From: an uncultured bacterium
GTDB lineage: Bacteria; Electryoneota; RPQS01; CBDVBD01
DNA length: 64,000 bases
Direction: 5' to 3'
Assembly (NCBI GenBank): GCA_965372135.1
Contig: CBDVBD010000001.1
Coordinates: 3,964-67,963, forward strand
Part shown: in pieces, positions 10,483 through 29,676 of the stretch
How positions within the stretch are numbered: the stretch's first letter is position 1
Layout of the letters: every line of letters begins with the position of its first letter
The notes under the pieces: generated by a model
What the model was told of the DNA's origin: nothing
Databases searched by the model: none
Seen by the model: the letters and a program-made list of their open reading frames with translations, nothing else
Made by a program: the position numbers and the translations under genes

Positions 10483-10511
10483 TTGACAATTGATTTTCCT
10501 ATGATTATGTT
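10483..10511 (+). promoter_or_regulatory. Sigma-70-like promoter candidate (TTGACA-17-TATGTT)
   Basis: TTGACA at 10483-10488, a 17-nt spacer, then TATGTT at 10506-10511. Confidence 0.3.
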
Positions 10512-10650
10512 TTGTCATGTGATAAGAGATTCGTTTGAAACATTGGAGGAAATACACTTCGTGGAGTAATAGCTGGTTATTATATGTACCTGGGTCGAAG
10601 ATAAGCCCCCAAATCATGCAGATAGCTGAATTCACCGATTAGAGATACCC

Positions 10651-10684
10651 CCGACCTTCGACCGGTCGGTTTATTTTTTTTATT
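10651..10684 (+). terminator. Intrinsic terminator 2 nt upstream of the response-regulator start codon
   Basis: Perfect 6-bp GC stem CCGACC/GGTCGG with a 7-nt loop, then a 15-nt T-rich run TTTATTTTTTTTTATTT. Confidence 0.5.
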
Positions 10685-10685
10685 T

Positions 10686-12050
10686 ATGGGAATGATTATG
10701 AAGAAACCAAAAATTCTGTTAATTGATGATGACCCTCTGTTTCTGAAAACCACCCAGCAACAATTGGCGGAATTAGGCTATGACACTAATACTGCTCCGG
10801 ATGGAATCTCAGGTAACCGTGAGATTTCCGCTGATAATTATGCCTTAATTTTGCTGGACTTGCGCCTTCCCGACACCGATGGATTGACTTTATTAAAGAC
10901 GTGGCAAGACAAAATGATTCCCTCACCGGTTATCATGATTTCCGGCGAAGGAACCATCCCCGAAGCGGTCAAAGCCATGAAACATGGTGCGCTGGATTTC
11001 TTGGTGAAACCGGTAGATATCGATCTGTTAGAGGTGGTAGTGAAGCGTACGTTGTCTTCTCAAAAATTGGTGAAAGAGAACCTTAGGTTAAAGCAGTTGG
11101 TTCGTCCGGACAAAGCTGTTTTCCTGGGTGATAGTGATGTGGTGAAAGAGTTACTCGATATCGCTGACAAAGTGGCAGATAGCGATCATCCCATATTGCT
11201 TGAAGGCGAAACCGGAACCGGGAAACAGGTTCTGGCGCACTATATTTTACAACATTCCAACCGAATCAATGAACCGTTCGTGCAAGTGAATTGTGCAGCC
11301 ATTACCCCAACCCTGTTCGAATCAGAGCTGTTTGGACATGAAAAAGGCGCATTCACCAGCGCTCATGTCCGAAAAATCGGCAAATTGGAGCTGGTGGGTA
11401 AAGGGACTCTTTTTTTGGACGAAATTGGTGAGCTGCCGCCCGAATGTCAGGCGAAATTGTTAACTGCAGTTGAAAACAGAACCTTCGAACGGGTAGGGGG
11501 GACGTCTGTCCTCTATTTTGAAGGCAGGATCATCGCCGCCACCAATCGGAACCTGGAAGATGAAGTAACCAACGGAAATTTCAGGAAAGACCTGTTCTAC
11601 CGGCTGAACACCTTTCGGCTAAATTTACCTCCTTTGAGGGAACATATCGAGGATATACCCATATATATCAACCACACTTTAGACCAATGCGGGCGGAAAT
11701 ACGGTAGTACTTTCGATTCACCGGAACCGGACGTGCTGGAGCAGCTAAAGAAATATCATTGGCACGGTAATGTCCGTGAAGTCATCCATCATGTTGAGCG
11801 TATCGCGCTGTTTTCCGACAGCAAAAAAATTCCCAAACGCCTCTGGCTGACTTTACCTTCGCTGGTGCAAGACCCATCCACTGATGAATATGAAACCAAC
11901 CTGCAAACCGCCATAGATTCCTTCAAAGAGCAGCACATATTGAAAATACTGGCAAATTGCGGTGAGAATCAGACCGAAGCGGCAAAACGCTTAGGCATTG
12001 GTCGCACTTACCTAAATCGATTATTATCATCATATAAAGATCATAAGTGA
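10686..12050 (+). CDS. Sigma-54-dependent response regulator (NtrC family: REC + AAA+ + HTH)
   Basis: REC domain (LLIDDD..., D54-like LLDLRLPD). Sigma-54 interaction domain with Walker A GETGTGKQ and motif ESELFGHEKGAFT. C-terminal HTH. The true start may be the Met at 10692 or 10698. Confidence 0.9.
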   Translation: MGMIMKKPKILLIDDDPLFLKTTQQQLAELGYDTNTAPDGISGNREISADNYALILLDLRLPDTDGLTLLKTWQDKMIPSPVIMISGEGTIPEAVKAMKHGALDFLVKPVDIDLLEVVVKRTLSSQKLVKENLRLKQLVRPDKAVFLGDSDVVKELLDIADKVADSDHPILLEGETGTGKQVLAHYILQHSNRINEPFVQVNCAAITPTLFESELFGHEKGAFTSAHVRKIGKLELVGKGTLFLDEIGELPPECQAKLLTAVENRTFERVGGTSVLYFEGRIIAATNRNLEDEVTNGNFRKDLFYRLNTFRLNLPPLREHIEDIPIYINHTLDQCGRKYGSTFDSPEPDVLEQLKKYHWHGNVREVIHHVERIALFSDSKKIPKRLWLTLPSLVQDPSTDEYETNLQTAIDSFKEQHILKILANCGENQTEAAKRLGIGRTYLNRLLSSYKDHK

Positions 12051-14506
12051 GCGCTATTCCCATCAAATATCAACGTTCCATTGCGGTCATCTGCTTTATC
12101 TGTATTGGATTGATTGGCACCGTCAACGTATCCCGTCGGATGCATTTTGGAATCAATGTCGACCAGATCGACGGACACACATTCATTAGTTCAATCGAAC
12201 CGGGAAGTCACCCTGAAATTGCTGGGTTACAGGTTGGTGATGAGCTATTGGCAGTGGACGGTAAAATCGTTCAGAACAAAGCGGTTGCCAGATGGATTCT
12301 AATAGGTGTAGAATCCAGGTCACCGTCTGTTTTTCTTGTCCAGCGAGGTGACGAACGATTCAACATCACACTCCCGCCGGAATCACAATTCGATATCGGA
12401 TTTCTGATTCTAAATGCGCTGTTGGGTATCACTTTTATCATCGTCGGCACCGTAGTGTGGTGGAACGGTTTTTCGGATGCAACAGTCCGATCTTTCTTTC
12501 GGTTGAACTGTTTTGCCGGAGCCGCTATCCTTCTATTCTCACATGAAAACACTCTGCATCCATTATTGCTGCACCATGCATATTCCTTCGCCTGGTTATT
12601 TACCTATTGCATGATACCATCGGCACTGTTGGAATTCATAATCAGATTTTCAAATTATTTTGAACAACCACGCCGTCACTCGACCACCGTCATCATCCCA
12701 TATTTACCTCCCATCGCGACATTCTTAACCCTAAGTGTTTTCTATCACTACGCTTACAATTCTTTTAGTCCGCACTGGATTACCCGCTATGAAACATTAT
12801 TTAATATAGGTTTCGGCGGGATTCTGTTAATCTACTTCACCGGCAGTATCTTATTATTGCTGCGAAACTATCTCAAACCGTCGAATCAGGTGGAAAAAGA
12901 CCGCATTCGCTGGCTGCTCATTTGCACATTCCTCGGGCTGGCGCCATTTTTCTTACTCTATAAAGTACCCGCGCTTTTCGGCTTAAATCCCTTTATTCCC
13001 CTTTGGACGGCATTTACACTGATGTTAATCGTCCCCATCGGTTGGGGGATGGCGGTGGCATCGTTCCGGATGTTGAAATTGGAATGGGTGCTGTCCCGGA
13101 CCATCGTCTATGCAATTTCCGCCGCCCTGGTTCTATATTTAATGTTAACGGCAGCGTCAAGCAGCATCGGATATGTTCAATACAAAGATACCACCTCCTT
13201 GATCGTTTTGTCGGTGCTCGGAATTGTGACGATATCCTTAGCAGTCTCAGGATTAATCGGATATGTTCGCAAGTTTATCGACCGGATTTACTACCACGAC
13301 TGGTACCGGTACGAAAAAGCGCTTCACGATCTTGGGGTGGAGCTATCCGGCTCCATCACCGAAAAAGCTATCGTTGAAATCCTTACCGAACGTTTTCCTT
13401 CAATATTGAAAATCACAAAAGCGACACTTCTAATCAAAAGCGATGACGGCAGCTTTCTGCTGCCCCATCAAACCACAGAACCAGGTAAAGGGAGGTTGGA
13501 GACAATTCAAAAATTACAAAAAGACTTTGCGGATATTACTAATTTCCCAAAAGATAGTCGTCTCGAACTGTCATCCTCCGATATAGGCGAACTTGGATAC
13601 CAGTATGTGTTGTACCTGGTGCATACCAGCGACATCATTGGCATCTTATTGCTGAGCAAAAAACTCTCAGGTGCACCCTTCAGCATTCGCGATCATCAAT
13701 TACTGGAGACTATGTCGAGTTATGCCGGCACCGCTATTGCCAATTTGGGTCTCACCCGCAAGTTGCTTGATACCGAGAAACGCGGATTGGCCGTGGACAT
13801 GGCGGGCGGGATAGCTCATGAAATCAACAATGCCCTGTCGCCCTTAATGGGACAAGCCCAACTAATTGAACGTTCTCTGTCACGAAGCCCTGAATCCGAA
13901 GGACAACGGGAAATGACTCAAAGAACTAATATAATCGTCGATATGTGTAATCGTATTAAGCGAATCGCTCTGAACTTAGGAAAAATTTCAGAACCCCTCC
14001 ACCTTGAGAAAACCTCGCTGTCTTTGAATGATGTCGTGGAAGAAATCCTGCAGATAATGTCCGAAACTGCCGGTCGCATTAAGCGTTACAAACTAAATGA
14101 TCCCCACGCCAAATTCCAGCTTTTCAAAAATTTGGATAAAAATCTGCCCTCAATAACAGCCGACCATCAGCAGTTAAACCAAGTATTTATGAATCTCATC
14201 CTAAATGCTTCAGATGCCATGGAGCCGCAAGGGCAGGGTACCCTAACAGTTAGAACCCAATTTGCGCAGGAACAGAATTCCGTGGTGGGATTTGTCGAGG
14301 ACACCGGTCCCGGAATTCCACACCATTTGAAGGACAAAATTCTCCAACCCTATTTTACCACCAAAGAAGAGGGCAAAGGAACCGGACTGGGATTATCCAT
14401 CGTCCGCTCCATAATCGAAGCCCACGGCGGTCAATTAAAAATCCACTCCACCGAAGGTCACGGCACCCGCATAGAATTCACCCTCCCCATCAGCAAGTCT
14501 GACTAA
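12047..14506 (+). CDS. Sensor histidine kinase with N-terminal PDZ-like domain and multi-TM sensor region
   Basis: PDZ-like GLQVGDELLAVDG. At least 8 predicted TM helices. HisKA H-box HEINNALSPL. HATPase_c G-boxes DTGPGI and GTGLGLSIV. Overlaps the RR gene by 4 nt. Confidence 0.85.
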   Translation: MSAIPIKYQRSIAVICFICIGLIGTVNVSRRMHFGINVDQIDGHTFISSIEPGSHPEIAGLQVGDELLAVDGKIVQNKAVARWILIGVESRSPSVFLVQRGDERFNITLPPESQFDIGFLILNALLGITFIIVGTVVWWNGFSDATVRSFFRLNCFAGAAILLFSHENTLHPLLLHHAYSFAWLFTYCMIPSALLEFIIRFSNYFEQPRRHSTTVIIPYLPPIATFLTLSVFYHYAYNSFSPHWITRYETLFNIGFGGILLIYFTGSILLLLRNYLKPSNQVEKDRIRWLLICTFLGLAPFFLLYKVPALFGLNPFIPLWTAFTLMLIVPIGWGMAVASFRMLKLEWVLSRTIVYAISAALVLYLMLTAASSSIGYVQYKDTTSLIVLSVLGIVTISLAVSGLIGYVRKFIDRIYYHDWYRYEKALHDLGVELSGSITEKAIVEILTERFPSILKITKATLLIKSDDGSFLLPHQTTEPGKGRLETIQKLQKDFADITNFPKDSRLELSSSDIGELGYQYVLYLVHTSDIIGILLLSKKLSGAPFSIRDHQLLETMSSYAGTAIANLGLTRKLLDTEKRGLAVDMAGGIAHEINNALSPLMGQAQLIERSLSRSPESEGQREMTQRTNIIVDMCNRIKRIALNLGKISEPLHLEKTSLSLNDVVEEILQIMSETAGRIKRYKLNDPHAKFQLFKNLDKNLPSITADHQQLNQVFMNLILNASDAMEPQGQGTLTVRTQFAQEQNSVVGFVEDTGPGIPHHLKDKILQPYFTTKEEGKGTGLGLSIVRSIIEAHGGQLKIHSTEGHGTRIEFTLPISKSD

Positions 14507-14651
14507 TTATCACTTCCCTTCACTTCCCTTAAACAGAATCCAAGCCTGCATTTCTCATGTATGATTCTCTGAAACAAGTGTATAGTGCAAAGCACAGTCT
14601 GACTTGTTCTCAAATCTGATTAACTTATTAAATAATAACCTATAATGATTG

Positions 14652-14667
14652 TGGCATGGCTATTGTA
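14652..14667 (+). promoter_or_regulatory. Sigma-54-like -24/-12 element TGGCATG-N4-TTGT (GC to GT at -12)
   Basis: GG-N10-G(T) spacing correct. Lies about 50 nt upstream of the ATG at 14716. Shares TGGCATGGCT with the element at 16969. Confidence 0.35.
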
Positions 14668-14715
14668 TTTAGATGGTGCAGAACTTCACTGAACACCTAA
14701 TTGGAGGAAATTAGA

Positions 14716-15198
14716 ATGTACCATCAAAACAAGATTCGCCCCTCAATCTTTAAGGGTTTTTGTTTTCTGAATCATTCCTTGCGGAAAAGCATTTTTTGGA
14801 ATACAATGATCTGTGTTCTCTGCGTTCTAATATTTGCTTCCATTGGACTTACTCAGATGGACTATGCCTCTCTGTCAAGTGATGATATGGTCGGATCGTA
14901 TGGGCAACCAAGTGAAGACGACAACCCACCTGCTGCTCCGTCATCCACCAAGAGATTTCGTATTTCTTTGAGCTGGGCTTTGATACAGGCAGAACCCAGT
15001 GATGGTTTGATTCACACATTCTCATCATCTGAATCTGGTGGATCCAATGGTGGTTTTCTCAGCGCGCTGCTCCATATCAATCAAGGTAAACCGCTTGCAT
15101 CGGCTTTTGGAATCAATTGTTGCATCACCGACGGTCTCGGTTTAGAACTAACGGTGCGCATCGTTGCCAATGATGGGGTGAGTGGCGCAAGCAGCTAA
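14716..15198 (+). CDS. Hypothetical membrane-anchored protein
   Basis: ATG at 14716 preceded by GGAGGA. One N-terminal TM (MICVLCVLIFASIGL). No recognisable domain. Confidence 0.4.
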   Translation: MYHQNKIRPSIFKGFCFLNHSLRKSIFWNTMICVLCVLIFASIGLTQMDYASLSSDDMVGSYGQPSEDDNPPAAPSSTKRFRISLSWALIQAEPSDGLIHTFSSSESGGSNGGFLSALLHINQGKPLASAFGINCCITDGLGLELTVRIVANDGVSGASS

Positions 15199-15261
15199 TC
15201 CCATCCGGGCGGTGATGAGAACAACACACATCAACCACTTTAGCTGGAGAAGGGAGTCATC

Positions 15262-15813
15262 ATGAAAACCCTATCATCTTACCGAGCTGCAATTGTAATT
15301 GGATTGTCGGTGGCAATCCTTCCGGTTGGGCTTTCAGCGCAGCCTCGGTCACCGGAAAATGGAACCACTTATGTTCGATAAAATTGTAGTGGACCCCGAC
15401 TGGGTTTTACCTATGTGCCGGGAGATAACGAAGTCTGGCGGAAATTGGATGACAAAAACATGGGTCGCGTGTTTACTCAGTTTGGTTGGCAATTTGAATA
15501 TGTAGTGGTTCCCAAAGGTAGAGGGCCATCTTACGCCATCGAATTTCTTCCCCTTATCGCGGGTGTTGAATATGGAAGGTTCATTCCAAGTGGAACGCTA
15601 ACGATGGGCATCCGTGCTGCTGGAGGCTTTGAGTTTGCAGTAGGACCAACCGTTTTACCATGGAAAGCCGCGCTGTCAATTCAAACTGGTACCAGTATAC
15701 ATTTCGACGAAACAAACATCCCGGTGCGATTGATTTACACACATAATCCCGATGGCAGCATTATTTCATTATTGGTCGGCTATGCCATCGGTAAAGCGAA
15801 GTCGGAATCGTAG
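15262..15813 (+). pseudogene. Signal-peptide / outer-membrane beta-barrel-like ORF interrupted by one in-frame TAA (15379-15381)
   Basis: ATG at 15262 encodes a signal peptide (MKTLSSYRAAIVIGLSVAILPVGLSAQP). The same frame continues after the TAA into a 145-aa beta-strand-alternating sequence ending ...GYAIGKAKSES. RBS GGAGAAGGGAG upstream. Confidence 0.4.
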
Positions 15814-15905
15814 CATCCTTCAGCCCAATTCCTTTAGTTCAAACCATGCTTTGCATTAATCTGTTACTATTTGGCTGAAACGCGGAATTCGGTTTCATAA
15901 TAATT

Positions 15906-16775
15906 TTGTATTGCAATAAGGTGTTCACGTCTTTGGAGATTTCACCGGTATTATTGGAAAAAGAATCCAGACTTTTGAGGCAAATGATGGACGCTGGAAC
16001 AACATTCGCGGTTAATGAGATGGATCGATATGAAGCACAGCCTAATATTCATAAATGGCTGTTTATTTTCGGACTGTGCTTCGCTGTCTGGCATATCATC
16101 CCGGTGTTCCTGGGTTGGGAAATCAAGGGTAAGTTTACAATCGGCGACCTGGTAGATCTATCCACACCGTTCGTTCTACTCGGACTTGTGCTAAAATTGT
16201 ATTTCATATTACAGCGACAGCGAAGAGAAACAGAGGGATGGGAAAGAGTCTCCATTTTTGGTCAACTTCTACTAATTTTCGGCGCCATTGTCTTCGTCCA
16301 GGGACACGGTATCCATCTCGCCAGCAACGCCATTTATCGATACTTAGTCGGAAACCCAACCTCGCCTCTGTCTTCACTAACCTATTTCTTTGATGAGATC
16401 CAAAGCCATTTCTTCTGGGATTCGGGATTATTGCTGATCGCGTTCGGACTGATTCTGCTTGACTATTGTTCGGATTCCCGATCAGAACCAATATCGGCAC
16501 CATCTAAACGTTGGATTTTCTGCGGTGCCTTATTATATGGATTCACCCATTTCTGCAATGGCGTGGAAGGACAAACCGCTGTTTTGACTTTCCCGGCAGC
16601 AGTTCTTATCCCAGTTCTCCTTGTCCTAATATCCTGGGTAATGCATCTGCGATTGCTGCTTAGTCCTGTTATCCTCTTCTATTTTACCGCATTCCTCACT
16701 GCCGACATCCTCTTCATTTTCTGGGGCATACTGCACAAAGGATTCCCCCAATTCAGTGAATTGGGCTGGTTCTAA
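15906..16775 (+). CDS. Integral membrane protein (about 8 TM), unknown function
   Basis: Multiple hydrophobic helices. No recognisable motif. Confidence 0.5.
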   Translation: MYCNKVFTSLEISPVLLEKESRLLRQMMDAGTTFAVNEMDRYEAQPNIHKWLFIFGLCFAVWHIIPVFLGWEIKGKFTIGDLVDLSTPFVLLGLVLKLYFILQRQRRETEGWERVSIFGQLLLIFGAIVFVQGHGIHLASNAIYRYLVGNPTSPLSSLTYFFDEIQSHFFWDSGLLLIAFGLILLDYCSDSRSEPISAPSKRWIFCGALLYGFTHFCNGVEGQTAVLTFPAAVLIPVLLVLISWVMHLRLLLSPVILFYFTAFLTADILFIFWGILHKGFPQFSELGWF

Positions 16776-16968
16776 GCCCCGACACTGAAAACATTCCCTC
16801 AAAATCCTGTCCAAAGCAACTCAATTTCCCTGATATACCCCTCACTACTTATCTGCCTACCTAAGCGCGTATTCAGTGTACACAAAAGCATTAATCTGTT
16901 CAATTCTCTATACACTTCCCTGGAATTTCCTATAATGTAATACATTATCATTCAGTTACTTAAATCAT

Positions 16969-16984
16969 TGGCATGGCTTTTGAG
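16969..16984 (+). promoter_or_regulatory. Sigma-54-like -24/-12 element TGGCATG-N4-TTGA
   Basis: Same TGGCATGGCT core and spacing as the element at 14652. Lies about 55 nt upstream of the ATG at 17039. Confidence 0.3.
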
Positions 16985-17038
16985 TTATAGCAAAGCGTAA
17001 GTGTAGAAATGTTTTTTTGGGTTAAAGAAGAGGTTGTC

Positions 17039-18379
17039 ATGAAAAATCGTAATAGACTGGTATTGCTAATTGCATTAATGGTCGCAGCTGTGCTTAGTGG
17101 TTGCGATTCACCTATGGGACCTGACGAACCAAAACAACCCAAGAGTACCGGGCATTCTCCTCCGTTACCTGGAAATCTGCTAATTAATGTTGAATCGGAT
17201 GAGAGTGAATTCGATAGCGTCCTGTGCTTTGTACCCTCATATTCATTAGAGTTAATTAAAATGCTGCATGAAGGAGACTGCTATACTGTCAATATACAAC
17301 TGGATTCTGGAAGTTATAACATAATTTCCGAGGGATACCGTGAAGGACATGCAACTTATTCAGGATTTGGTACAGGACAGGTATCATCAAATCAAACAAC
17401 AACCATCGATATTTCATTGTCCCAAAAGGCATATGAGGTTGTAGGTTCCACTGATTTATTTGGGAGAGCAGAGAAAGTTGTTGTTGTAGGTAACTACGCT
17501 TATGTGCAGGTTAACAGTGCGTATCCTACTTATGATCCTGGTCTTCAAATAATTGATATCTCCAATCCTGACAATCCTACTTCTGTTGGATTCTACCGGT
17601 CAACATATTCGTTTCGAGATATTGCAGTTGCTGGAGGCTATGCCTATGCAGTGTGTGGAGGCTTAAGAGTGATCGATGTCTCCAACCCTTCTGGACCCAT
17701 AGAAGTTGGATGTCTTGTATCCACCATAATTGCTTTTGCCGCAAGAAATATCGAAATTAACGGGAATTACGCTTATGTTTCGGGATACATCAATTTTTAT
17801 GGATGTGGCATGTATCTTTGGGTGATCGATATTTCAAATCCCACTAATCCTGTGCAAGTTGGATTTAACTACACGATGGGAACGCTCTGTAGTGTCATTG
17901 AGGTCTCAGATCAATTCGCTTATTTAGCATGTGGGCAAAATGGTTTAATGGTTATGGATGTATCCGATCCAACAAATCCCAATGAAGTAGCTCAATGTGG
18001 ATTTTCCTATGCTGCATGGAAGATATCCGTCTCCGACGACTACATCTATGTCGCTGGAGATTCCCCTAATATAACGATTGCGGATATATCTACACCTTCA
18101 GATCCCGTAGAAGTTGGTTGTTGTTATTATATCTGGTATCCAAATGAAATTGCGGTATCCCAGGATTTCGGTTATGCTGTTACCGATTACAGTTTGATTG
18201 AAGTTAAGGCTACAGATCCTTCCAATCCAATTATTACAGGCTTATGCAGGCTCCCACAAGATACAAAGAGTATTGCCATTTCTGGTGATTACGCTTACGT
18301 AGCCTGTGATTCGAATGGATTGCAGACTGTTTACATTGGTGAGAAGCGACGGAAAAACGAAAATGTGGAGGAAGAGTAA
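17039..18379 (+). CDS. LVIVD-repeat beta-propeller lipoprotein
   Basis: Lipobox LSGCDSP. Six repeats of the (L/V)x(V/I)(I/M)D(I/V)S(N/D/T)P..P..VG pattern, e.g. LQIIDISNPDNP and LRVIDVSNPSGP. Real start likely ATG 17039 (RBS AAGAGG). The ORF track started at 17009. Confidence 0.75.
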   Translation: MKNRNRLVLLIALMVAAVLSGCDSPMGPDEPKQPKSTGHSPPLPGNLLINVESDESEFDSVLCFVPSYSLELIKMLHEGDCYTVNIQLDSGSYNIISEGYREGHATYSGFGTGQVSSNQTTTIDISLSQKAYEVVGSTDLFGRAEKVVVVGNYAYVQVNSAYPTYDPGLQIIDISNPDNPTSVGFYRSTYSFRDIAVAGGYAYAVCGGLRVIDVSNPSGPIEVGCLVSTIIAFAARNIEINGNYAYVSGYINFYGCGMYLWVIDISNPTNPVQVGFNYTMGTLCSVIEVSDQFAYLACGQNGLMVMDVSDPTNPNEVAQCGFSYAAWKISVSDDYIYVAGDSPNITIADISTPSDPVEVGCCYYIWYPNEIAVSQDFGYAVTDYSLIEVKATDPSNPIITGLCRLPQDTKSIAISGDYAYVACDSNGLQTVYIGEKRRKNENVEEE

Positions 18380-18999
18380 TGAAAAAGCAAATGCATAATC
18401 AAAATGGAACGTTGGACCGATTCCTTGCCACCTTCAATCAATTTATCGGAAGTGGTGTCCTGATCGCCGTTGTCATTCTATCTGGTGCCACTGTTGTTTC
18501 AGCCGCACAGAAATCACAAATCAAAAAGATTCCTTGTGTAACCGTCGTCAGCAAAAACGGTGACCAGCACCCCGGTAGAGTGTTTGATGTTTCTGACACA
18601 TCACTAACACTGTGGTGCAGCGAAGAGCTGTATAGTGATCAGAATCGCAGCCAACATTCCAGGAATGTACACTACTCGGAAATCAGTCACATTATCATCG
18701 AGGAGAAAGGCAATACTGTATCTGGGGTGGTTATTGGAACGTTGCTTGGCGCAACTCTTGGATTGTTCAGTTCGCAGCTTGTACCGGTTACATGGACCAA
18801 TGTGAACTGGTCGCCGTTCGAAATGGCGGAAACCATGTTGGAAACCCCGATGGTTTTGATCTGTGCAGTCCTTGGTGGAGTCGCCGGTGCGTTGAATGGG
18901 ATCGACACAAAAGTTCAGATAAACGGCGATATCGAATCATTTCATAATATCGTACCAATTCTTCAAGAGATCAAAGTTAAAGAAGGAGAATCACCATGA
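18379..18999 (+). CDS. Secreted small protein: N-terminal KDG-type beta domain plus C-terminal glycine-zipper TM segments
   Basis: Start ATGA overlaps the upstream stop. Signal/anchor sequence. Motif VVSKNGDQHPGRVFDVSDTSLTLW. Gly-zipper segments GVVIGTLLGATLGLF and AVLGGVAGALNG. Confidence 0.5.
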   Translation: MKKQMHNQNGTLDRFLATFNQFIGSGVLIAVVILSGATVVSAAQKSQIKKIPCVTVVSKNGDQHPGRVFDVSDTSLTLWCSEELYSDQNRSQHSRNVHYSEISHIIIEEKGNTVSGVVIGTLLGATLGLFSSQLVPVTWTNVNWSPFEMAETMLETPMVLICAVLGGVAGALNGIDTKVQINGDIESFHNIVPILQEIKVKEGESP

Positions 19000-19868
19000 A
19001 GTCAACACAATATTTTTTGATTCTGATTTTACTCGTTTTATCCATCGCCTCCAATTTCGCTGTTGCACAGCAGGGCACAACCTCCCAAGATAAAGTATAC
19101 CAAATTGTGTTGAAAGACGGATCGAGGCTAATTGGGATGATTGAGGATGAGGATAACGATACCATCAGCCTAACAACCTTAATCGGCATTGAGATCAACA
19201 TCGAAAAGAATCAAATTGAGAAAATGAAGCTTCTTTCGGGTGTAGTAGTGGGTGGAAAATATCGGCGGTCTGACCCGAATTATACCAGGCTGTTCTTCGC
19301 CCCCACTGCGCGACCCCTGAAATCAGGGCAAGGGTACTTTTCCATCTATGAATTATTCCTTCCTTTTGTAGCCGTTGGCATTGGTGACGTACTCACATTA
19401 GCTGGAGGAATCTCCATATTTCCCGGAGCCCCACAACAAGTGTTTTATTTGGCGCCCAAGGTTACGCCAATCCATCTGAAGGGTATTGATATGGCAGCGG
19501 GTATTATGCACATTGGCTCAACTGGGGGAAATAGCGAAGGTATGGGCATAATCTATGGATTAGGTACATTTGGTTCAACTGCCAGTGCCTTTACGCTTGG
19601 CCTTGGGTGGGGATATGCTGGGAAAGAAACCGCCGACAAACCAATTGTCATGGTTGGGGGGGAACTGCAGGTATCCAATAGTTTTAAGTTGATCACCGAG
19701 AATTGGTTCCCGCCTGATTCGGAAGTTTCCCTCATCTCTTTTGGATTCAGGATGTTCGGTGATAACCTTGCTGCAGACCTGGGTCTCTGTAATCTGGCAG
19801 GCGCAGGAATGCGGGGATTTCCGTTTTTCCCCTGGGTTGGCTTTGTCTATAATTTCAATACAACATAA
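18996..19868 (+). CDS. Secreted protein: KDG-type N-domain plus beta-rich (barrel-like) C-terminal region
   Basis: 4-nt overlap with the upstream gene. Signal peptide. Motif IVLKDGSRLIGMIEDEDNDTISLTT. Ends ...VYNFNTT. Confidence 0.5.
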   Translation: MKSTQYFLILILLVLSIASNFAVAQQGTTSQDKVYQIVLKDGSRLIGMIEDEDNDTISLTTLIGIEINIEKNQIEKMKLLSGVVVGGKYRRSDPNYTRLFFAPTARPLKSGQGYFSIYELFLPFVAVGIGDVLTLAGGISIFPGAPQQVFYLAPKVTPIHLKGIDMAAGIMHIGSTGGNSEGMGIIYGLGTFGSTASAFTLGLGWGYAGKETADKPIVMVGGELQVSNSFKLITENWFPPDSEVSLISFGFRMFGDNLAADLGLCNLAGAGMRGFPFFPWVGFVYNFNTT

Positions 19869-19956
19869 TCATCAATTAGTGCTTGTAAGTAATTTCCTAT
19901 TTACACTAACACAAATCTTCAAGTACTATCGAACAAAAACACGTGAGGAGGAAAAA

Positions 19957-21222
19957 ATGAAGAAACGGAGTAATTTTTATTCAACCATGATCGCTTTGGT
20001 GCTGCTGTCAACTACCTGTTACTTTTCGGGTAGCGCCCAAGCCGGTCAATCACCGGAAGCACTGACCAGTGCAGCGCTCAAACCAGCCACCGTCGAAGTC
20101 GGAATGTCCAGAATATTCCACCTCCGAGATGGAAATGTCGTTGCCGGGACCATCACCGCAATCGAACACGATTCCATCGCGGTGATCGAAGCCCCGGATG
20201 GCACGCTACGCATTCCCACTTGGGAGATCCTCGAGGAGATGGTGGATCTGACAAAAAACGACAACACCCGCTTCGTGGGTCCGGTCCTTTCCGAGGACGA
20301 CTACTCGATTTCCATCAAGACCCCCTATGGCGTGGTTGTGGTACTGAAGCGCGACATCCAATCCATGGATCGCTATTACGGTGACAAAAAAGTGAGCTGG
20401 GAGGAAGAGAAGCAGCGGTTCTATCCCGCTGAAGAGCTTATCGACATCTTCCTGGATCCCACTGCCTTTCCACTGCAACCGCATACCATCTATCTGAGCG
20501 GTCTATCTCTGGGCTATGGGTTTACCGAAAATTTTATGCTGCGAACCCAGTTCGGGAACAACTTTGTGTACGACCTGAACCTGCACCCCATGTTCCGCAT
20601 CTTCCGCCGTACCACTGGAACCTCGGAGATCAGCTTAGCCGTCGGTGCCAGGCTATTCAGCCATCATAAAGTTAAACAGCAAGCCGAAAAGTACAGCCAA
20701 TGGATTATCGACACAGGTCTCGATAGTTCCTTGCACGAAAAAGGCGCTGTGCTCGTGGATAGTGTGCTGGAAGATCCCGATAAAAAGGAGTTCTACTGGG
20801 AATCTTATCTGGTCCTGAGCCGCCGCCAAAATCTTCCCAGCGGTCGCGGGAAATGGGGTTGGCATTTGGGTGTGCAAACCAACTCCATGGTGCACACCAG
20901 ACCGGAATTAAATCCCGAGTATGAATGGGACGATGAGTTTGAATTCCCCTACCGGATCTGGGCAGCCATGGACTATGACCTCACCAAAAAGCTGAAATTC
21001 CTCATCGAGGTCTTTGCCGATAACGGACACAAGTTTATCACTCTCGAGGAAACCGCCCGCAGCTATTTCGATTTCGATAACACACCGTTCTCCGTGGAAA
21101 CCCAAACCGGTGACTACCAACCGGTGGACCTCGATTTCGGGTTCATCTACACCATCACGGAAGCGTTTCGGCTCGGGTTACACTTCCAGTCTCCCTACTT
21201 GGAAATCTATTGGAAATGGTAG
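19957..21222 (+). CDS. Secreted protein: two KDG-type N-domains plus beta-barrel-like C-terminal region
   Basis: ATG at 19957 preceded by GAGGAGGAAAAA (the ORF track extended it to 19741). Signal peptide. Motifs FHLRDGNVVAGTITAIEHDSIAVIEAPDGTLRIP and ISIKTPYGVVVVLKRDIQSMDRY. Ends ...YWKW. Confidence 0.5.
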   Translation: MKKRSNFYSTMIALVLLSTTCYFSGSAQAGQSPEALTSAALKPATVEVGMSRIFHLRDGNVVAGTITAIEHDSIAVIEAPDGTLRIPTWEILEEMVDLTKNDNTRFVGPVLSEDDYSISIKTPYGVVVVLKRDIQSMDRYYGDKKVSWEEEKQRFYPAEELIDIFLDPTAFPLQPHTIYLSGLSLGYGFTENFMLRTQFGNNFVYDLNLHPMFRIFRRTTGTSEISLAVGARLFSHHKVKQQAEKYSQWIIDTGLDSSLHEKGAVLVDSVLEDPDKKEFYWESYLVLSRRQNLPSGRGKWGWHLGVQTNSMVHTRPELNPEYEWDDEFEFPYRIWAAMDYDLTKKLKFLIEVFADNGHKFITLEETARSYFDFDNTPFSVETQTGDYQPVDLDFGFIYTITEAFRLGLHFQSPYLEIYWKW

Positions 21223-21243
21223 AAAACATAAGGAGACACCATC

Positions 21244-21726
21244 ATGAAGAAAATCTCGATATTACTTACGTTTTGCATGCTGCTCCATCCCCTAATTGGT
21301 TTCACGCAGCAAACAAACGGAATCGACGACGGCGATGACCTATTCCAAGCCCGTTCCATTAAGATAAACCGAATGTCGGTGGAATGGAAACACGAACCCA
21401 TGGACCTGATTTTGCAAAATGGGATAAGTTATTCCGGCAAATTCATCGCACTGCAGAATAACATCTTTCGATTACAAAGTAATGGTCAGGTTAGAGAAGT
21501 CCCGTTGAAGGATGTGAAAACCATCGTCCTGAAACGAAAGCCCCAGGACCTGCTTTTGGTTGGGTTGTCTGCCGTAGGTTTAGCCGCGTTATTTGCTGGT
21601 GGAGCGTCATTGGGCTTTGACGCATCCGATCAAACAGTTGCCGGTGCTGCTGGGGTTGGTGCAGTGGTAGGTGTTGCAATCGGTTGGCGAGCATTCTACC
21701 AAAACATCGAAATCCCAACCAAGTGA
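21244..21726 (+). CDS. Secreted small protein: KDG-type domain plus C-terminal glycine-zipper
   Basis: RBS AAGGAGA. Signal peptide. Motif LILQNGISYSGKFIALQNNIFRLQSNGQVREVPLKDVKTIVL. Gly-zipper GAAGVGAVVGVAIGW. Confidence 0.5.
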   Translation: MKKISILLTFCMLLHPLIGFTQQTNGIDDGDDLFQARSIKINRMSVEWKHEPMDLILQNGISYSGKFIALQNNIFRLQSNGQVREVPLKDVKTIVLKRKPQDLLLVGLSAVGLAALFAGGASLGFDASDQTVAGAAGVGAVVGVAIGWRAFYQNIEIPTK

Positions 21727-25216: not shown

Positions 25217-26560
25217 TCAGAAACGTATCGTAAATACTGTGTTTACACCAAGTACTGAACTGACGTTCATGGTGGCGCCGTGCAATCGCATGATTTGTTT
25301 TGACAAGCTTAACCCGATACCGGAACCCTCGGTTTTAGTGGTGAAGAATGGGATAAAGATTTTGTCCAGGACTTCCGCTTTTATGCCGTGTCCGTTATCT
25401 TCCACCTGGATCACCGGACACCCCCGTCCGTCGGTCCTGGCAATCATTTTGATGGTCGGATTGGGAGCGTTTTCCAGGGCTTCTACGGAATTTTTACAGA
25501 GGTTGATCAATACCTGTTCGATCATGTTGGGATCAGCGGTCAGTTCCAATGTTTCCGGGTCCACCGATACCTGGAGATCTATGGATTTTTGCCGGATTTG
25601 ATCCCCCATCAGGTTTCTTATTCGATTGAATAATTCTTCAATCAGGAATACTTCGTATTTCGGTTTGGGAATCCGGGTTAGTTTTCGGTAATCCTCCACG
25701 AAATGCAAAAGTCCATTACTGCGTTTTTCGATGGTTTTTACTGCGTTAACGATGTCATTGACAGCTTCATCCTCAGGATTGAATTTATCGGTATCAGCTG
25801 ATAACATTAATTTTGTTGTGGAGGCTAAGGAAGAGATGGGTGCGATGGAATTCATGATTTCGTGCGTTAAGGTACGGATAAGTGTCTGCCAGGCTTCCAT
25901 TTCCTTTTCTTCCAACTCCCGCTGGATGTTGGTCAACGACACCAAGGTAAAGGATTGCTGATGAGAGACGAATCCAGTGGCGTAAATCGACAATTGCAGC
26001 GATCGCTCTTCGTCCTGCAAGTTGATTTGTTCTTTCTCGCCGGGTTGGATATTTATAAGGGTGTCTGCCAGTTCCCGGCTGATGGGGGATAGCAGTTTGA
26101 TATTACGAAGGTTAGGGATTTTTAGCAGGCGTTTGGCGGCATTGTTGATCAACGTAACTTCCCCGTTCACGTCGTATGATATCAGACCCACGCCGACATG
26201 TTGGATAATGGTTTGAATGAAGCGATGATGCTCTTCCTTTTCCATCCGGATTCGCTTGAAGTTGTTCAAGACTTCGCCGAATGCATTGTGCAGGTCTTTG
26301 AATGTGGAACCTTTGGAAGTGCTGGCAAAGGGTTGCGAAAAGTCGGAATATTTTATTGATAACAGGAATCGTGTGACGTCGCGGTTGGTTTTTTCCACGT
26401 AGTGGAATAGTGCAAACACCTGATAAATAATGAGTACACCGACAATGAATACCGTGGCATACAGTTGTGTTTGGAATAGAAGATAGAGAAACAGGAATAT
26501 GGTGGCACCCAACAAAATCAGCCGCAAGGTGCAGTTTAGGCGGAACCGTTTAAAGATCAT
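25217..26560 (-). CDS. Sensor histidine kinase (2 TM, HisKA + HATPase_c)
   Basis: Two N-terminal TM helices. H-box LTHEIMNSIAPI. G-boxes EDNGHGI and GSGIGLSLSKQI. Overlaps the RR gene by 11 nt. Confidence 0.85.
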   Translation of the reverse strand: MIFKRFRLNCTLRLILLGATIFLFLYLLFQTQLYATVFIVGVLIIYQVFALFHYVEKTNRDVTRFLLSIKYSDFSQPFASTSKGSTFKDLHNAFGEVLNNFKRIRMEKEEHHRFIQTIIQHVGVGLISYDVNGEVTLINNAAKRLLKIPNLRNIKLLSPISRELADTLINIQPGEKEQINLQDEERSLQLSIYATGFVSHQQSFTLVSLTNIQRELEEKEMEAWQTLIRTLTHEIMNSIAPISSLASTTKLMLSADTDKFNPEDEAVNDIVNAVKTIEKRSNGLLHFVEDYRKLTRIPKPKYEVFLIEELFNRIRNLMGDQIRQKSIDLQVSVDPETLELTADPNMIEQVLINLCKNSVEALENAPNPTIKMIARTDGRGCPVIQVEDNGHGIKAEVLDKIFIPFFTTKTEGSGIGLSLSKQIMRLHGATMNVSSVLGVNTVFTIRF

Positions 26561-27926
26561 GCTTCTCCATCCTTCGGTACAATGAGGCTCGAGTGATGCC
26601 TAATTCCTTTGCGGCATAAGTCACGTTCCCTTCGTACTTGGTCAAGGCTTTTCTGATGATGGTTTTCTCCACGAAATCCAAGTCGAAATTATCGAATATC
26701 AAACCTTCCAGGTTTGCCACGGCAGACGGAAACAGAAAATCCGACGGTTGCAGCGTTTCGGTCTCCGCCAGGATAACGGCTCGTTCGATGGCATGCCGGA
26801 GTTCACGGATATTTCCGGGCCAATGATAACGCTGAAGCTTTTTCATGGTGGCGGAATTGATACTGTCTATGGGCTTTTTATATTTCTTGGAAAAAATCGA
26901 TACGAAGTGATCCACTAACAGCGGGATATCGTCCACACGTTTACGGAGTGGAGGTATTTGGATTTCCACGGTGTTGATGCGATAGAGCAGGTCCTGGCGA
27001 AATTCATTGCCCTGCACCATGTCATGGATATGCAAGTTGGTGGCGCATATCAAGCGAATATCGATGTCGATGGGTGCATTCGATCCCAGCCGGATTACCT
27101 GGCGGTTTTCCAATACCCGCAGCAGCTTCGCCTGCAGGGCTATCGGTACGTTTGCGATTTCGTCCAAGAAGATGGTGCCGCCGGAAGCTACTTCGAATCG
27201 ACCCGGTCGGTTTTCCTTGGCATCGGTGAAGGCACCTTTCATGTAACCAAAGAGTTCACTTTCGAACAACGTATCGGAAATCGCACCCACATCCACACTG
27301 ATAAAAACTTCATCCGCGCGTTCCGAGCCGCGGTGCAGAGCGCGTGCCACCAATTCTTTTCCCGTGCCGTTTTCCCCCAAAATCAACACATCGGCATCGG
27401 TATCCGCCACCTTTCGAATTGCGTTGAACACCTCTTGTATTGCGGAACTGACTCCGATCATTTCGTGGAAACGCTGATCGATATCGGCACTTAATTGCTT
27501 TTGGCGCGATCGGAATTTATCCACCTCACGCTGCGACTGACGCAGGTTCATTGCGGAGGATAGTGTAGCTAACAGCTTTTCGTTCTGCCAGGGTTTCAGC
27601 ACAAAGTCGGTGGCACCTTGTTTGATGGCTTTAACCGCCATTTCCACATCACCGAAAGCGGTAATCATAATCACCACCGCCGAGGGGTCGATTTCCTGAA
27701 TCTTTTCCAACCAGTGAAACCCTTCCAATCCGCTGGTTACATCCTCGGTAAAATTCATGTCCAGCAGGATAACATCGTAGGTCTCATTCTGTAGCAACGA
27801 TGGGATATGGTCGGGATTTTTTTCCGTGTGTACCACTGAGATATGCTGCTTGAGGAACATCTGTGCAGCAAGGAGGATATCCTCATTATCATCGACGATC
27901 AGGATTCTCCCGGAAACCTTAGCCAT
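26550..27926 (-). CDS. Sigma-54-dependent response regulator (NtrC family)
   Basis: REC (RILIVDDNEDI...LLDMNF), AAA+ sigma-54 domain (GENGTGKE, ESELFGYMKGAFT) and HTH. The ORF track starts at 27950 (MIDKKVDLMAK...). The Met at 27926 is preferred because it has AAAAAGG upstream and is the typical REC start. Confidence 0.9.
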   Translation of the reverse strand: MAKVSGRILIVDDNEDILLAAQMFLKQHISVVHTEKNPDHIPSLLQNETYDVILLDMNFTEDVTSGLEGFHWLEKIQEIDPSAVVIMITAFGDVEMAVKAIKQGATDFVLKPWQNEKLLATLSSAMNLRQSQREVDKFRSRQKQLSADIDQRFHEMIGVSSAIQEVFNAIRKVADTDADVLILGENGTGKELVARALHRGSERADEVFISVDVGAISDTLFESELFGYMKGAFTDAKENRPGRFEVASGGTIFLDEIANVPIALQAKLLRVLENRQVIRLGSNAPIDIDIRLICATNLHIHDMVQGNEFRQDLLYRINTVEIQIPPLRKRVDDIPLLVDHFVSIFSKKYKKPIDSINSATMKKLQRYHWPGNIRELRHAIERAVILAETETLQPSDFLFPSAVANLEGLIFDNFDLDFVEKTIIRKALTKYEGNVTYAAKELGITRASLYRRMEKHDL

Positions 27927-27962
27927 GAGATCAACCTTTTTATCAATCATCTGTTGTCTCGT

Positions 27963-27991
27963 AATATATGGATTTACAGCGATATTGTCAA
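27963..27991 (-). promoter_or_regulatory. Sigma-70-like promoter for the RR-HK(-GH38) unit (minus strand TTGACA-17-TATATT)
   Basis: Minus-strand reading: TTGACA (27986-27991), 17-nt spacer, TATATT (27963-27968). Confidence 0.35.
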
Positions 27992-27997
27992 GTATTG

Positions 27998-28015
27998 GTG
28001 AATGAAAATATTCAC
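27998..28015. promoter_or_regulatory. Perfect palindrome GTGAAT-N6-ATTCAC (candidate operator/activator site)
   Basis: GTGAATgaaaatATTCAC, immediately adjacent to the minus-strand -35 element. Confidence 0.3.
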
Positions 28016-28134
28016 TTGTGATTTCGGATTACTTCTGTATGGCAAATATCATTCCACATGCGCAAATTTATATACTGAGAAACCAGCGGCTAAGGCTCAG
28101 CAGCGGTTAAGCATGATAAGTAGTTAGCCTTTAG

Positions 28135-28150
28135 TGTCCGATATCGGACA
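28135..28150. promoter_or_regulatory. Perfect 16-bp palindrome TGTCCGATATCGGACA (candidate enhancer/UAS for the NtrC-type activator)
   Basis: Lies about 210 bp upstream of the sigma-54 -24/-12 element, with AT-rich (IHF-like) DNA in between. Confidence 0.35.
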
Positions 28151-28360
28151 TTAGTTGACCGGAACCGAACACTGGACGCCGATTGTCAGGTAATATCAGG
28201 ATTAGTCTGGAGTGGGTGAACTGGGGGAATGGTCAAAGGAATCGCATGTGGATATGAAATTGTATTATGATAATTATAATATAGATACAACATGAATAGG
28301 ATTTCCGATTTTGTCATTGTTGGAATTTAAGTACGTATGATATATTATATATACCCGCAT

Positions 28361-28375
28361 TGGCACCAATCTTGC
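28361..28375 (+). promoter_or_regulatory. Sigma-54 (RpoN) promoter TGGCAC-N5-TTGC
   Basis: Exact GG-N10-GC consensus (TTGGCACCAATCTTGCC). Predicted TSS near 28387. The first gene's ATG is at 28423. Confidence 0.6.
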
Positions 28376-28422
28376 CTAATATAATGAACATAGAATTGCT
28401 ATTTTCTGAGGAATGGAAGATC

Positions 28423-29676
28423 ATGGACCGTCAAATCAAGAAAAAGAAGTGGACACCAAAACGGATTGCTACGATGTCCTTAGCTGCCGTTTTTTTGGTA
28501 TTTGCATTGAAAGTCATTTTATTCGATACCAGGGACACCAAGCTGAATGTCAATGCCGAAAGGCTGTCTATTTCCACCGTTACAAAAGGACCATTTCAGG
28601 AATTTATCGCGGTGACCGGAACCTTGATTCCCATCAAGACCATCTATTTGGACGCCATCGAGGGGGGTAGGGTGGATTCGATATACCTGGAAGCTGGGAC
28701 CTATGTCAATAGAGGCGACAGTATTTTGAAATTGGTGAATACCAACCTGATGATGGATATTATGTACCGGGAAGCGGAGCTGTTCCAACAGAGCAATAAT
28801 CTGAGAAACACACGGCTTTTGATGGAGCAAAACCGTCTGAGAATCCAAGGTGAGATTCTGGAATTGGATTACCAGATTACCCAGCAGCGGCGTGTAGTGG
28901 AAAATAATGAGGAATTGAAAAAGAGGAATTTGATTGCCGATCAGGACTATGAGGAAGCATTGGATCAGTACCAGTATTTGATGAATACACGGGATCTGAC
29001 ATTGGTATCCCACCGGCAGGATTCGGTATTTCGGGAGGTGCAGGTTGAACAATTGGAGGCAGGGCTGGACCGGATGGAAGAAAACCTCGAATTTGTGAGA
29101 CAAAATGTGGAAAACTTGATTCTGAAGGCTCCCTTTTCCGGCCATCTGACGTCGTTGAATGCGGAGATCGGGGAATCAAAAGTCCGGGGAGAACGGTTGG
29201 GGCAGATCGATGTGTTGGACGGTTTCAAAGTGCGCGTGGCGGTGGATGAGCACTATATCACCCGGGTGAATATCGGGCTCAGAGGGGAATTTACCTTGGC
29301 GGATTCGATCTATCAATTGATAATCAAGAAAGTGTATCCGGAGGTGATTAACGGCAGGTTTGAAGTGAACATGGAATTTGTGGATCAGGAACCGGAGGAA
29401 GTCCGGCGCGGGCAATCGCTGCATATCCGGTTGGAATTAGGAGATTTGTCGGAAGCACTGCTTCTGGATCGCGGCGGATTTTACCAGAGCACCGGCGGGC
29501 AGTGGGTATATGTGTTGGACGAATCAGAACAGTTTGCGATAAAGCGCAAGATCAGGATCGGGCGGCAGAATCCGGAAGTGTTTGAGGTGTTGGAAGGGTT
29601 GGAACCGGGTGAGAAGGTGATAACCTCGTCTTATAGTAACTACGGAGATGTGGATAGATTAATGCTAAAACAGTAG
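28423..29676 (+). CDS. HlyD-family periplasmic adaptor (membrane fusion protein) of the ABC efflux system
   Basis: N-terminal TM anchor. Barrel-sandwich/biotinyl-like motif and long coiled-coil hairpin. Beta-barrel C-terminal region. Start ATG 28423 with GAGGAATGGAAG upstream. Confidence 0.8.
   Translation: MDRQIKKKKWTPKRIATMSLAAVFLVFALKVILFDTRDTKLNVNAERLSISTVTKGPFQEFIAVTGTLIPIKTIYLDAIEGGRVDSIYLEAGTYVNRGDSILKLVNTNLMMDIMYREAELFQQSNNLRNTRLLMEQNRLRIQGEILELDYQITQQRRVVENNEELKKRNLIADQDYEEALDQYQYLMNTRDLTLVSHRQDSVFREVQVEQLEAGLDRMEENLEFVRQNVENLILKAPFSGHLTSLNAEIGESKVRGERLGQIDVLDGFKVRVAVDEHYITRVNIGLRGEFTLADSIYQLIIKKVYPEVINGRFEVNMEFVDQEPEEVRRGQSLHIRLELGDLSEALLLDRGGFYQSTGGQWVYVLDESEQFAIKRKIRIGRQNPEVFEVLEGLEPGEKVITSSYSNYGDVDRLMLKQ

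Follow-up and report, generated by a model that had tools for sequence, protein, structure and literature searches.

Candidate sigma-54 promoters with fixed-distance enhancers beside a PDZ kinase and an NtrC-type regulator in an uncultured bacterium

The present study analyzes two look-alike motifs in a 64,000-nucleotide stretch of a contig from an uncultured bacterium (the window, whose positions are used throughout), each standing before genes for predicted secreted and membrane proteins and close to the genes for a PDZ-containing sensor histidine kinase and an NtrC-type response regulator. Each motif is probably a sigma-54 (RpoN) promoter core that works with its own separate enhancer, or upstream activator sequence (UAS), under the adjacent kinase/regulator pair, a reading that is drawn from sequence comparison and to which we assign a probability of about 0.8. 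What the comparison establishes is a set of sequence elements, their fixed geometry, and their conservation alongside the kinase/regulator pair. The arrangement is that of a standard enhancer-dependent promoter with a two-component activator and is an ordinary bacterial switch apart from an oddity at position -12. The separate enhancer is newly defined here, and the -12 pattern is the only part that a specialist might find unexpected.

Predicted promoter cores and their upstream palindromes

The elements on which this reading is built are the following.

14652-14666, + strand: predicted sigma-54 promoter 1, TGGCATGGCTATTGT, consisting of TGGCAT (-24), GGCTA and TTGT (-12); predicted start at about 14677-14679
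16969-16983, + strand: predicted sigma-54 promoter 2, TGGCATGGCTTTTGA, consisting of TGGCAT (-24), GGCTT and TTGA (-12); predicted start at about 16994-16996
14579-14596, no strand: candidate enhancer (UAS 1), TGTATAGTGCAAAGCACA, TGT-N12-ACA, 73 nt upstream of the T of TGGCAT
16897-16914, no strand: candidate enhancer (UAS 2), TGTTCAATTCTCTATACA, TGT-N12-ACA, 72 nt upstream of the T of TGGCAT
14558-14576, no strand: possible distal imperfect enhancer, TGT-N13-ACA, one base longer, 94 nt upstream of promoter 1; tentative

Both motifs, GTGGCATGGCTATTGTA at 14651-14667 and TTGGCATGGCTTTTGAG at 16968-16984 on the + strand, are intergenic and lie on the coding strand of the gene that follows, and both predicted starts were placed by the usual -12 geometry. 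From the end of the first motif there are 49 nt to the ATG at 14716, a start codon with a GGAGG ribosome-binding site ahead of it; for the second motif the gap is 55 nt, to the ATG at 17039, where a lipoprotein-type signal peptide (MKNRNRLVLLIALMVAAVLSGC) begins. The GG-N10-G spacing is exact in both, with GG at -24/-25 and G at -13 as in the frame of TGGCAC-N5-TTGC; at -12 the first has the dinucleotide GT (T at 14666) and the second GA (A at 16983). An earlier, sequence-only reading had described both strings upstream of these two ATGs, with exact GG-N10 spacing and a non-consensus GT or GA at -12, and all of this is found exactly as written. That reading had also said that it would fail if the motif were a dispersed repeat unrelated to gene starts; the exact 10-mer TGGCATGGCT occurs twice in the window, both times at these motifs, and is therefore not a dispersed repeat.

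Matching to the consensus is by itself not above chance, with 64 matches to TGGCACN5TTGC at up to two mismatches in the window against 51 expected; TGGCA-N6-TTG occurs eight times against 3.0 expected. Scoring with an RpoN position weight matrix, which the sequence-only reading had proposed as a check, places the two motifs as the top two positions in the window. A matrix trained on 16 validated Salmonella sigma-54 promoters (table in PMC3844500; training range 15.8–23.3 bits) put position 14652 first (19.0 bits) and 16969 second (15.8 bits) among approximately 128,000 window positions, both within the training range, and gave the third rank to a canonical promoter at 28361 that belongs to another regulon of the window.

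The same promoter class recurs in related loci, which are metagenomic contigs and contigs of metagenome-assembled genomes that carry the same PDZ kinase and NtrC-type regulator, the kinases being 40–62% identical. TGGCA[CT]-N5-TTG[AT] lies 100–240 nt past the kinase stop codon in loci L001, L081, L086, L087, L090, L096, L097, L098, and L103 (L083 is identical to L087 at these promoter sites), and variants with one mismatch at -24 follow the kinase gene in L094 (TGGCGC) and L102 (AGGCAC). Counted together, at least 12 related loci have the promoter type after their kinase ortholog, and the type was seen wherever downstream sequence sufficed and the kinase was a close family member. Further copies stand before other genes (L001 4512 and 17998, L081 13225, L087 15847, L103 16429, and L086 3540), and the related promoter sites lie 50–300 nt before genes. 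Homolog names place the closest relatives in Calditrichaeota, a name that the L090 contig itself carries. One of these sites, in L086, is followed by an unusually long 5′ leader of approximately 240 nt (2400–2640), in which a C9/G7 hairpin, CCCCCCCCCTACTATTTGTAGGGGGGG, precedes a membrane-protein gene.

The intergenic sequence around these sites is otherwise unalignable, and information peaks at TGGCA and at TTG, with a free 5-nt spacer and no dyad symmetry. Two conserved blocks about a free spacer are therefore consistent with a sigma-54 core promoter signature, unlike the palindromic site of a regulator. This bears on a point that the sequence-only reading had left undecided, namely whether the motif was a promoter or an activator-binding site. 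If TGGCATGGCT(A/T)TTG were a binding site for a transcription factor, whether the adjacent regulator or some other protein, and not a promoter core, the identity of the 10-nt core at both window sites would be accounted for. We regard this as highly improbable because only TGGCA and TTG are kept across 17 related sites while “GGCT” varies freely without dyad symmetry, because both sites score like validated sigma-54 promoters, and because the role of activator site is filled by a separate palindrome at a fixed distance. Regulators of the NtrC family with an HTH_8 domain bind palindromes. Of the two options, then, the promoter is upheld by the two blocks, free spacer and missing symmetry, and the activator site gives way to the palindrome approximately 72 nt upstream. 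The related suggestion that the identical 10-nt core marks a shared site holds in so far as the promoter is shared; the identity itself, read from sequence, is mostly the known extended -24 consensus TGGCAYGR plus two further shared bases and has little extra meaning, and the spacer varies among orthologous promoters.

The palindrome is the most regular part of the arrangement. In 19 of 19 promoters of the class, those of the window included, TGT-N12-ACA starts 71–73 and/or 92–94 nt upstream of the T of TGGCA, and several promoters carry both copies, separated by 21 bp or two turns of the helix. The extended consensus is C-TGT-ayr-n-T-nn-A-n-yrt-ACA-G, and the N12 spacing was present in all 24 sites counted (22 from relatives and two from the window). 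A matrix made from the 22 sites of other loci and run over the whole window ranked UAS 1 best (17.3 bits) and UAS 2 second (15.5 bits), with the next position at 11.5 bits. The pattern itself is not enriched, as the window holds 13 copies against 19 +/- 5 from shuffles; two of the 13 lie at the prescribed promoter distance, for which the chance is approximately 0.002 per promoter. The three canonical promoters compared (28361 in the window, L087 -5546, and L103 -6352) have no TGT-N12-ACA palindrome. An enhancer-binding protein is encoded in the window at 10686-12050, and the putative activator sites lie within the range of about 70–150 bp from the promoter that is expected in a sigma-54 system.

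Between palindrome and promoter the spacer is AT-rich in most cases (0.62–0.75, compared with 0.45–0.56 locally). An IHF site was sought there, and even a relaxed consensus was matched in only three of 19 spacers, so that a convincing site is not general. Two repeats touch the same regions. An identical 13-mer, GCATTAATCTGTT, is present at 15853-15865 and 16888-16900, in two successive intergenic regions; its second copy overlaps the left half of UAS 2, and its first copy has neither a matching right half nor a promoter of the class nearby. The string CACTTCCCT has five copies in the window against 0.37 expected, three of them in the two control regions (14511-14529 and 16913-16921), including a tandem pair directly after the kinase stop codon. 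As a candidate activator site it was set aside, its distance not being conserved; in most loci, what comes after the kinase stop codon is simply a CT-rich tract.

The kinase/regulator pair and its predicted target genes

10483-10511, + strand: sigma-70-like promoter of the regulator/kinase operon, TTGACA (10483-10488), 17-nt spacer, TATGTT (10506-10511); putative function
10686-12050, + strand: NtrC-family response regulator/enhancer-binding protein with REC, sigma-54 interaction AAA+ and HTH_8 domains; proposed activator
12047-14506, + strand: sensor histidine kinase, 819 aa, with PDZ, a multi-transmembrane block, GAF, HisKA and HATPase (Pfam)

The sequence-only reading had recognized a sigma-54-dependent response regulator and a PDZ-containing multi-transmembrane histidine kinase at 10686-14506, and Pfam bears this out. 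Matches of the regulator to Sigma54_activat (1.8e-62), Response_reg (2.7e-23), and HTH_8 (3.7e-4), with PF00072, PF00158, PF25601, and PF02954 represented, give the NtrC-family architecture, and its orthologs, 53–68% identical, adjoin the kinase in all 15 loci. In the kinase, hydropathy identifies a helix at residues 10–28 ahead of the PDZ domain and more helices from 119 to approximately 405, and because of this order the PDZ domain is predicted to be periplasmic. The kinase orthologs form a compact family (39–91% identical; 22 with E<=1e-90). A scan of genome contigs with the full-length kinase alignment was led by catalytic-domain patterns to 79 unrelated kinases and one true ortholog (L001), and it was the alignment of the membrane domain, run against metagenome contigs, that recovered the ortholog loci.

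The regulator/kinase operon appears to have a promoter of another kind, since the regulator orthologs of L081, L087, and L103 are also preceded by the arrangement TTGACAAT...TATGTT / TAAGTT. Within this region (10483-10685) the window, alone among these loci, has a leader of approximately 170 nt before the regulator gene, and it ends directly before the start codon in a terminator-like hairpin (CCGACC at 10651-10656, GGTCGG at 10664-10669) with a T-run. The fold of this leader is not more stable than shuffles (z = 0.91), and an Rfam search of the whole window gave zero matches.

From the co-occurrence of palindrome and pair we infer that the adjacent NtrC-type regulator acts through the palindrome. 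An alternative explanation could be that the promoters are real sigma-54 promoters activated by an enhancer-binding protein encoded elsewhere in the genome. The link to the adjacent regulator is one of co-occurrence alone, two class promoters of L001 are approximately 4–8 kb from the regulator gene, and the regulator of the window has an altered GAFTSA loop, all of which would suit such an alternative. It would not account for the observation that at least 12 loci, with kinases only 40–62% identical, have promoter and enhancer directly behind the kinase gene, nor for the absence of the class where the pair is missing: in L107-L110 (Latescibacterota, Fidelibacterota, Marinimicrobia, and Electryonea) a pair of target genes for proteins of 422 and 160 aa is kept, but neither the kinase/regulator pair nor the palindrome nor the promoter is present. 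In addition, the only other enhancer-binding protein of the window has its own distinct conserved palindrome and promoter type. We therefore consider activation from elsewhere unlikely. The sequence-only proposal of a sigma-54 regulon of secreted and membrane proteins under this sensor pair is thus supported, at the level of comparative sequence analysis, by orthologous promoters, by the palindrome at fixed distance and by the absence of both where the pair is absent.

If control by the adjacent pair is correct, the switch could work as follows. RNA polymerase with sigma-54 would bind TGGCAT-N5-TTG[T/A] as a closed complex that is unable to open alone. On an envelope signal the kinase, with its predicted periplasmic PDZ domain, would phosphorylate the regulator (10686-12050), which would then bind TGT-N12-ACA centred approximately 64 bp upstream of -24 and, in many relatives, a second site two helical turns further. 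Reaching the polymerase across the short AT-rich spacer, the regulator would open the promoter using ATP, and two operons, 14716 to approximately 16775 and 17039-21726, would be switched on, with products that include predicted outer-membrane barrels, a lipoprotein and membrane proteins. Of this scheme, sigma-54 dependence, the palindrome-binding protein, the signal and the extents of the operons are what we infer. The predicted target genes, as open reading frames (ORFs) or from Pfam, are given here.

14716-15198, + strand: operon 1 gene 1, 160-aa protein with an N-terminal hydrophobic segment (ORF)
15262-15813, + strand: operon 1 gene 2, signal-peptide protein of approximately 184 aa, with an in-frame TAA at 15379-15381 (codon 40)
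15987-16775, + strand: polytopic membrane protein, 262 aa, possibly the last gene of operon 1; homologs 53–66% identical
17039-21726, + strand: predicted operon 2, five tightly packed genes (ORFs and Pfam)
17039-18379, + strand: operon 2, lipoprotein with LVIVD repeats
18379-18999, + strand: operon 2, 206-aa protein (ORF)
18996-19868, + strand: operon 2, 290-aa protein (ORF)
19954-21222, + strand: operon 2, 422-aa predicted outer-membrane beta-barrel protein (ORF, structure model)
21244-21726, + strand: operon 2, 160-aa partner of the 422-aa protein (ORF)

The first protein of operon 1 (14716-15198) matched no family in searches, and at E<1e-5 the related loci contain no homolog of it. The second has a full-length homolog of 184 aa at L001 5117-5671, downstream of the class promoter at L001 4512. 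Homologs of the third (15987-16775) are encoded by the first gene past the kinase-proximal promoter in L086 and L081; there is no promoter or enhancer of the class in the 170-nt gap before 15987, nor a third such promoter elsewhere in the window, and the gene is probably co-transcribed in operon 1. The most conserved target is the pair of 422-aa and 160-aa proteins of operon 2 (55–71% identical), which immediately follows a class promoter in L087 and L103; in L086, L090, L094, and L098, too, the pair has such a promoter upstream. The C-terminal residues of the 422-aa protein are ...YLEIYWKW. The AlphaFold model of this protein (pLDDT 79.7) had as top Foldseek matches in the PDB only outer-membrane barrels (OmpT, FadL, FapF, and KdgM among them), with TM-scores of 0.2–0.5 that, being low, support only the general barrel class. 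Several target proteins, as read from their sequences, have in common a short N-terminal beta-rich module, and in relatives the regulon also takes in radical SAM and UbiA-type enzymes. The target pair, which is shared by several phyla of the FCB group, has adjoining TetR-family genes in L107 and L109, and L107 has a stand-alone 248-aa sigma-54 AAA+ protein nearby.

Several observations weigh against the reading of these motifs as sigma-54 promoters under the adjacent pair. The C at -12, a hallmark of sigma-54 promoters, is missing from both window sites. The RpoN-box peptide was not found in the window or in 114 related loci (1.7 Mb), and the presence of rpoN in the genome is deduced only from the sigma-54 interaction domains. 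A lineage matrix, made from 17 non-window sites of related loci, again placed the two motifs on top (16969 first at 23.0 bits, 14652 second at 17.5 bits, and 28361 third), a test that is partly circular because its training sites were found with a window-derived pattern; this circularity does not touch the Salmonella matrix or the enhancer geometry. Orthologous promoters are moreover statistically non-independent. In the regulator, the loop that contacts sigma-54 is GAFTSA (nt 11346-11363), compared with GAFTGA in 15 of 15 orthologs, and changes in this loop can abolish activation. The variant may be functional, an inactivating change or an assembly error, and the switch may be impaired in this genome. 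The in-frame TAA in 15262-15813 likewise marks a pseudogene or else stems from an error in assembly or sequencing; loop and stop together may be assembly errors, or the circuit may be decaying in this organism.

A further observation of this kind is a sigma-70-like match, TATACA-16-TATAAT (10/12), at 16909-16936, which overlaps UAS 2. It could be that housekeeping-sigma promoters (CCTATAAT boxes, 14639-14646 and 16929-16936) are the main drivers of the genes and that the sigma-54-like strings are incidental, and in keeping with this there are weaker sigma-70-like matches near 14607-14636, CCTATAATG is common to both regions, and two-mismatch matches to the sigma-54 consensus are frequent in the window. 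We judge this very unlikely, as the sigma-70-like matches in the region number 13 against 15.1 in shuffles and the position of TATAAT is not kept in the orthologous promoters, whose spacers are simply AT-rich, as would be expected of a short loop between activator and promoter, while TGGCA, TTG and the palindrome are kept.

With sigma-54 control by the adjacent pair retained, the analysis offers a testable regulatory map for an uncultured Calditrichota-related lineage, comprising a PDZ kinase, a sigma-54 activator, its likely DNA site, a promoter class and a core regulon. That core consists of uncharacterised predicted outer-membrane proteins that are widespread in related phyla, in agreement with the published view that the main role of sigma-54 is control of the cell exterior.

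The base at -12 and a second sigma-54 regulon

The base at -12 is A or T, never C, in 19 of 19 promoters of the class (17 related and two from the window). A further ten sigma-54-like promoters were found in the same loci or in closely related ones, and nine of these have C at -12, eight of them as TTGCC; the ten are the HlyD/MacB promoters in the window, L111, L112, L113, and L114, the divergent regulator promoters in the window, L111, and L113, and the NHL-gene promoters in L087 and L103, and the one without C is that of L114, from a Zixibacteria contig. Fisher's test on this split gives p = 1e-6 uncorrected and approximately 0.01 after a crude collapse of related sites, figures in which shared ancestry is not properly handled.

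Validated promoters without the C are on record. In Salmonella, pspA has TTGT, STM0649.S has TTGA, and hydN has GTGT (PMC3844500), and an in-vitro library with Pseudomonas putida sigma-54 yielded TTGAAT beside TTGCAT, the strongest templates all being TTGCAT (PMC11997794). Because promoters with TTGT or TTGA do function, the missing C does not argue against function, and C at -12 is usual, not obligatory. It is conceivable, though we think it rather unlikely, that positions -12/-11 form a regulon-specific code, arising either from two RpoN paralogues that differ in their -12 preference and work with separate sets of activators or from selection for sub-consensus promoters. If selection for sub-consensus promoters were at work, the promoters would be empty unless a cis-bound activator recruited or stabilised the polymerase, and would thus be insulated from cross-activation. 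Cereibacter (Rhodobacter) sphaeroides offers a parallel with RpoN1 and RpoN2, in that promoter classes in one genome likewise differ at -12/-11 and are tied to activators (PMC11999139); the discrimination there, which is at -11, is due to multiple rpoN paralogues (PMC11999139). Co-variation of the GAFTGA loop with the -12 base was also considered and was rejected, as orthologs with the canonical GAFTGA have the same TTG[AT] promoters. The strict enhancer spacing together with the regulon-wide absence of C at -12 makes a natural data set on core-promoter weakness and activator specificity.

The window provides its own comparison in a second regulon.

26550-27950, - strand: second NtrC-type enhancer-binding protein, loop GAFTDA at 27219-27236
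27951-28425: control region of the second sigma-54 regulon, with two divergent promoters and a palindrome
28361-28375, + strand: canonical promoter TGGCACCAATCTTGC (within TTGGCACCAATCTTGCC, 28360-28376), before the HlyD-family gene of an HlyD/MacB-type operon
28056-28041, - strand: divergent promoter TGGAATGATATTTGCC, towards the regulator/kinase operon
28137-28152, no strand: perfect N10 palindrome TGTCCGATATCGGACA, between the two divergent promoters

With its canonical promoter at 28361, the organism therefore uses the canonical form too. The divergent TGGAATGATATTTGCC promoter suggests autoregulation of the second regulator/kinase operon. Both promoters and the palindrome are kept in L111 and L113; in L112 the conservation extends to the + strand promoter and the palindrome but not to the divergent promoter. 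Further downstream, past the HlyD-family gene, the window holds about a dozen tandem ORFs of 757–816 aa (30568-61112, + strand), which are known by length and position; the corresponding neighbours in L111-L114 are MacB_PCD/FtsX permeases.

Comparison with known systems

Among known systems, enterobacterial pspA with its activator PspF is a sigma-54 system of the phage-shock and envelope-stress response, likewise with upstream activator sites. PspF lacks a receiver domain, and its control is exerted by PspA instead of a histidine kinase. The present arrangement differs from it in having a REC-AAA+-HTH regulator with a PDZ kinase, and its targets are unrelated to those of PspF, being predicted barrels, an LVIVD lipoprotein and, in relatives, radical SAM enzymes. 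In promoter variant pspA is the closest of the known systems, having, like the promoters of the window, another base (T) for the C at -12 (TGGCACGCAAATTGTATT, Salmonella, PMC3844500).

The closest system in logic is NtrB/NtrC at glnAp2, the paradigm of a two-component sigma-54 switch, where a kinase acts with a REC-AAA+-HTH_8 regulator and palindromic enhancers lie approximately 90–110 bp upstream of the start, often two on the same helical face. The regulator of the window matches the NtrC profile TIGR01818 at 327 bits, below the cut-off of 558.6. Unlike NtrBC, the present system has a TGT-N12-ACA enhancer, a polytopic PDZ kinase, TTG[AT] at -12, and a distance from enhancer to promoter that is fixed within +/-1 bp.

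The closest kinase architecture is that of PrsK (TIGR02916), to which residues 210–814 align over profile positions 87–679 at 97.9 bits, against a cut-off of 300. The regulator aligns over its full length with PrsR (TIGR02915), at 320.8 bits against a cut-off of 502.6, so that both scores stay far below the family thresholds. PrsK/PrsR is the XrtA/PEP-CTERM system, and both systems control exported or envelope proteins; the kinase of the window has an extra N-terminal transmembrane helix and the PDZ domain, and no PEP-CTERM tail was found in the target proteins examined.

In enhancer shape the closest system is NifA, whose site is likewise a TGT...ACA palindrome, but with N10 there and N12 here, so that the site does not conform to the NifA type; it is the second regulon of the window (TGTCCGATATCGGACA) that does have an N10 palindrome. 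NifA is controlled through a GAF domain, compared with a phosphorylated response regulator here, and the weakness of nifH lies in the T-tract at -17 to -15, not in the C at -12. At nifH of Klebsiella pneumoniae, a sub-consensus core promoter of low occupancy makes activation strictly dependent on the cis-bound cognate activator. It is plausible, by analogy, that the TTG[AT] class is a deliberately weak promoter that depends on a cis-bound activator, as in nifH-type promoters.

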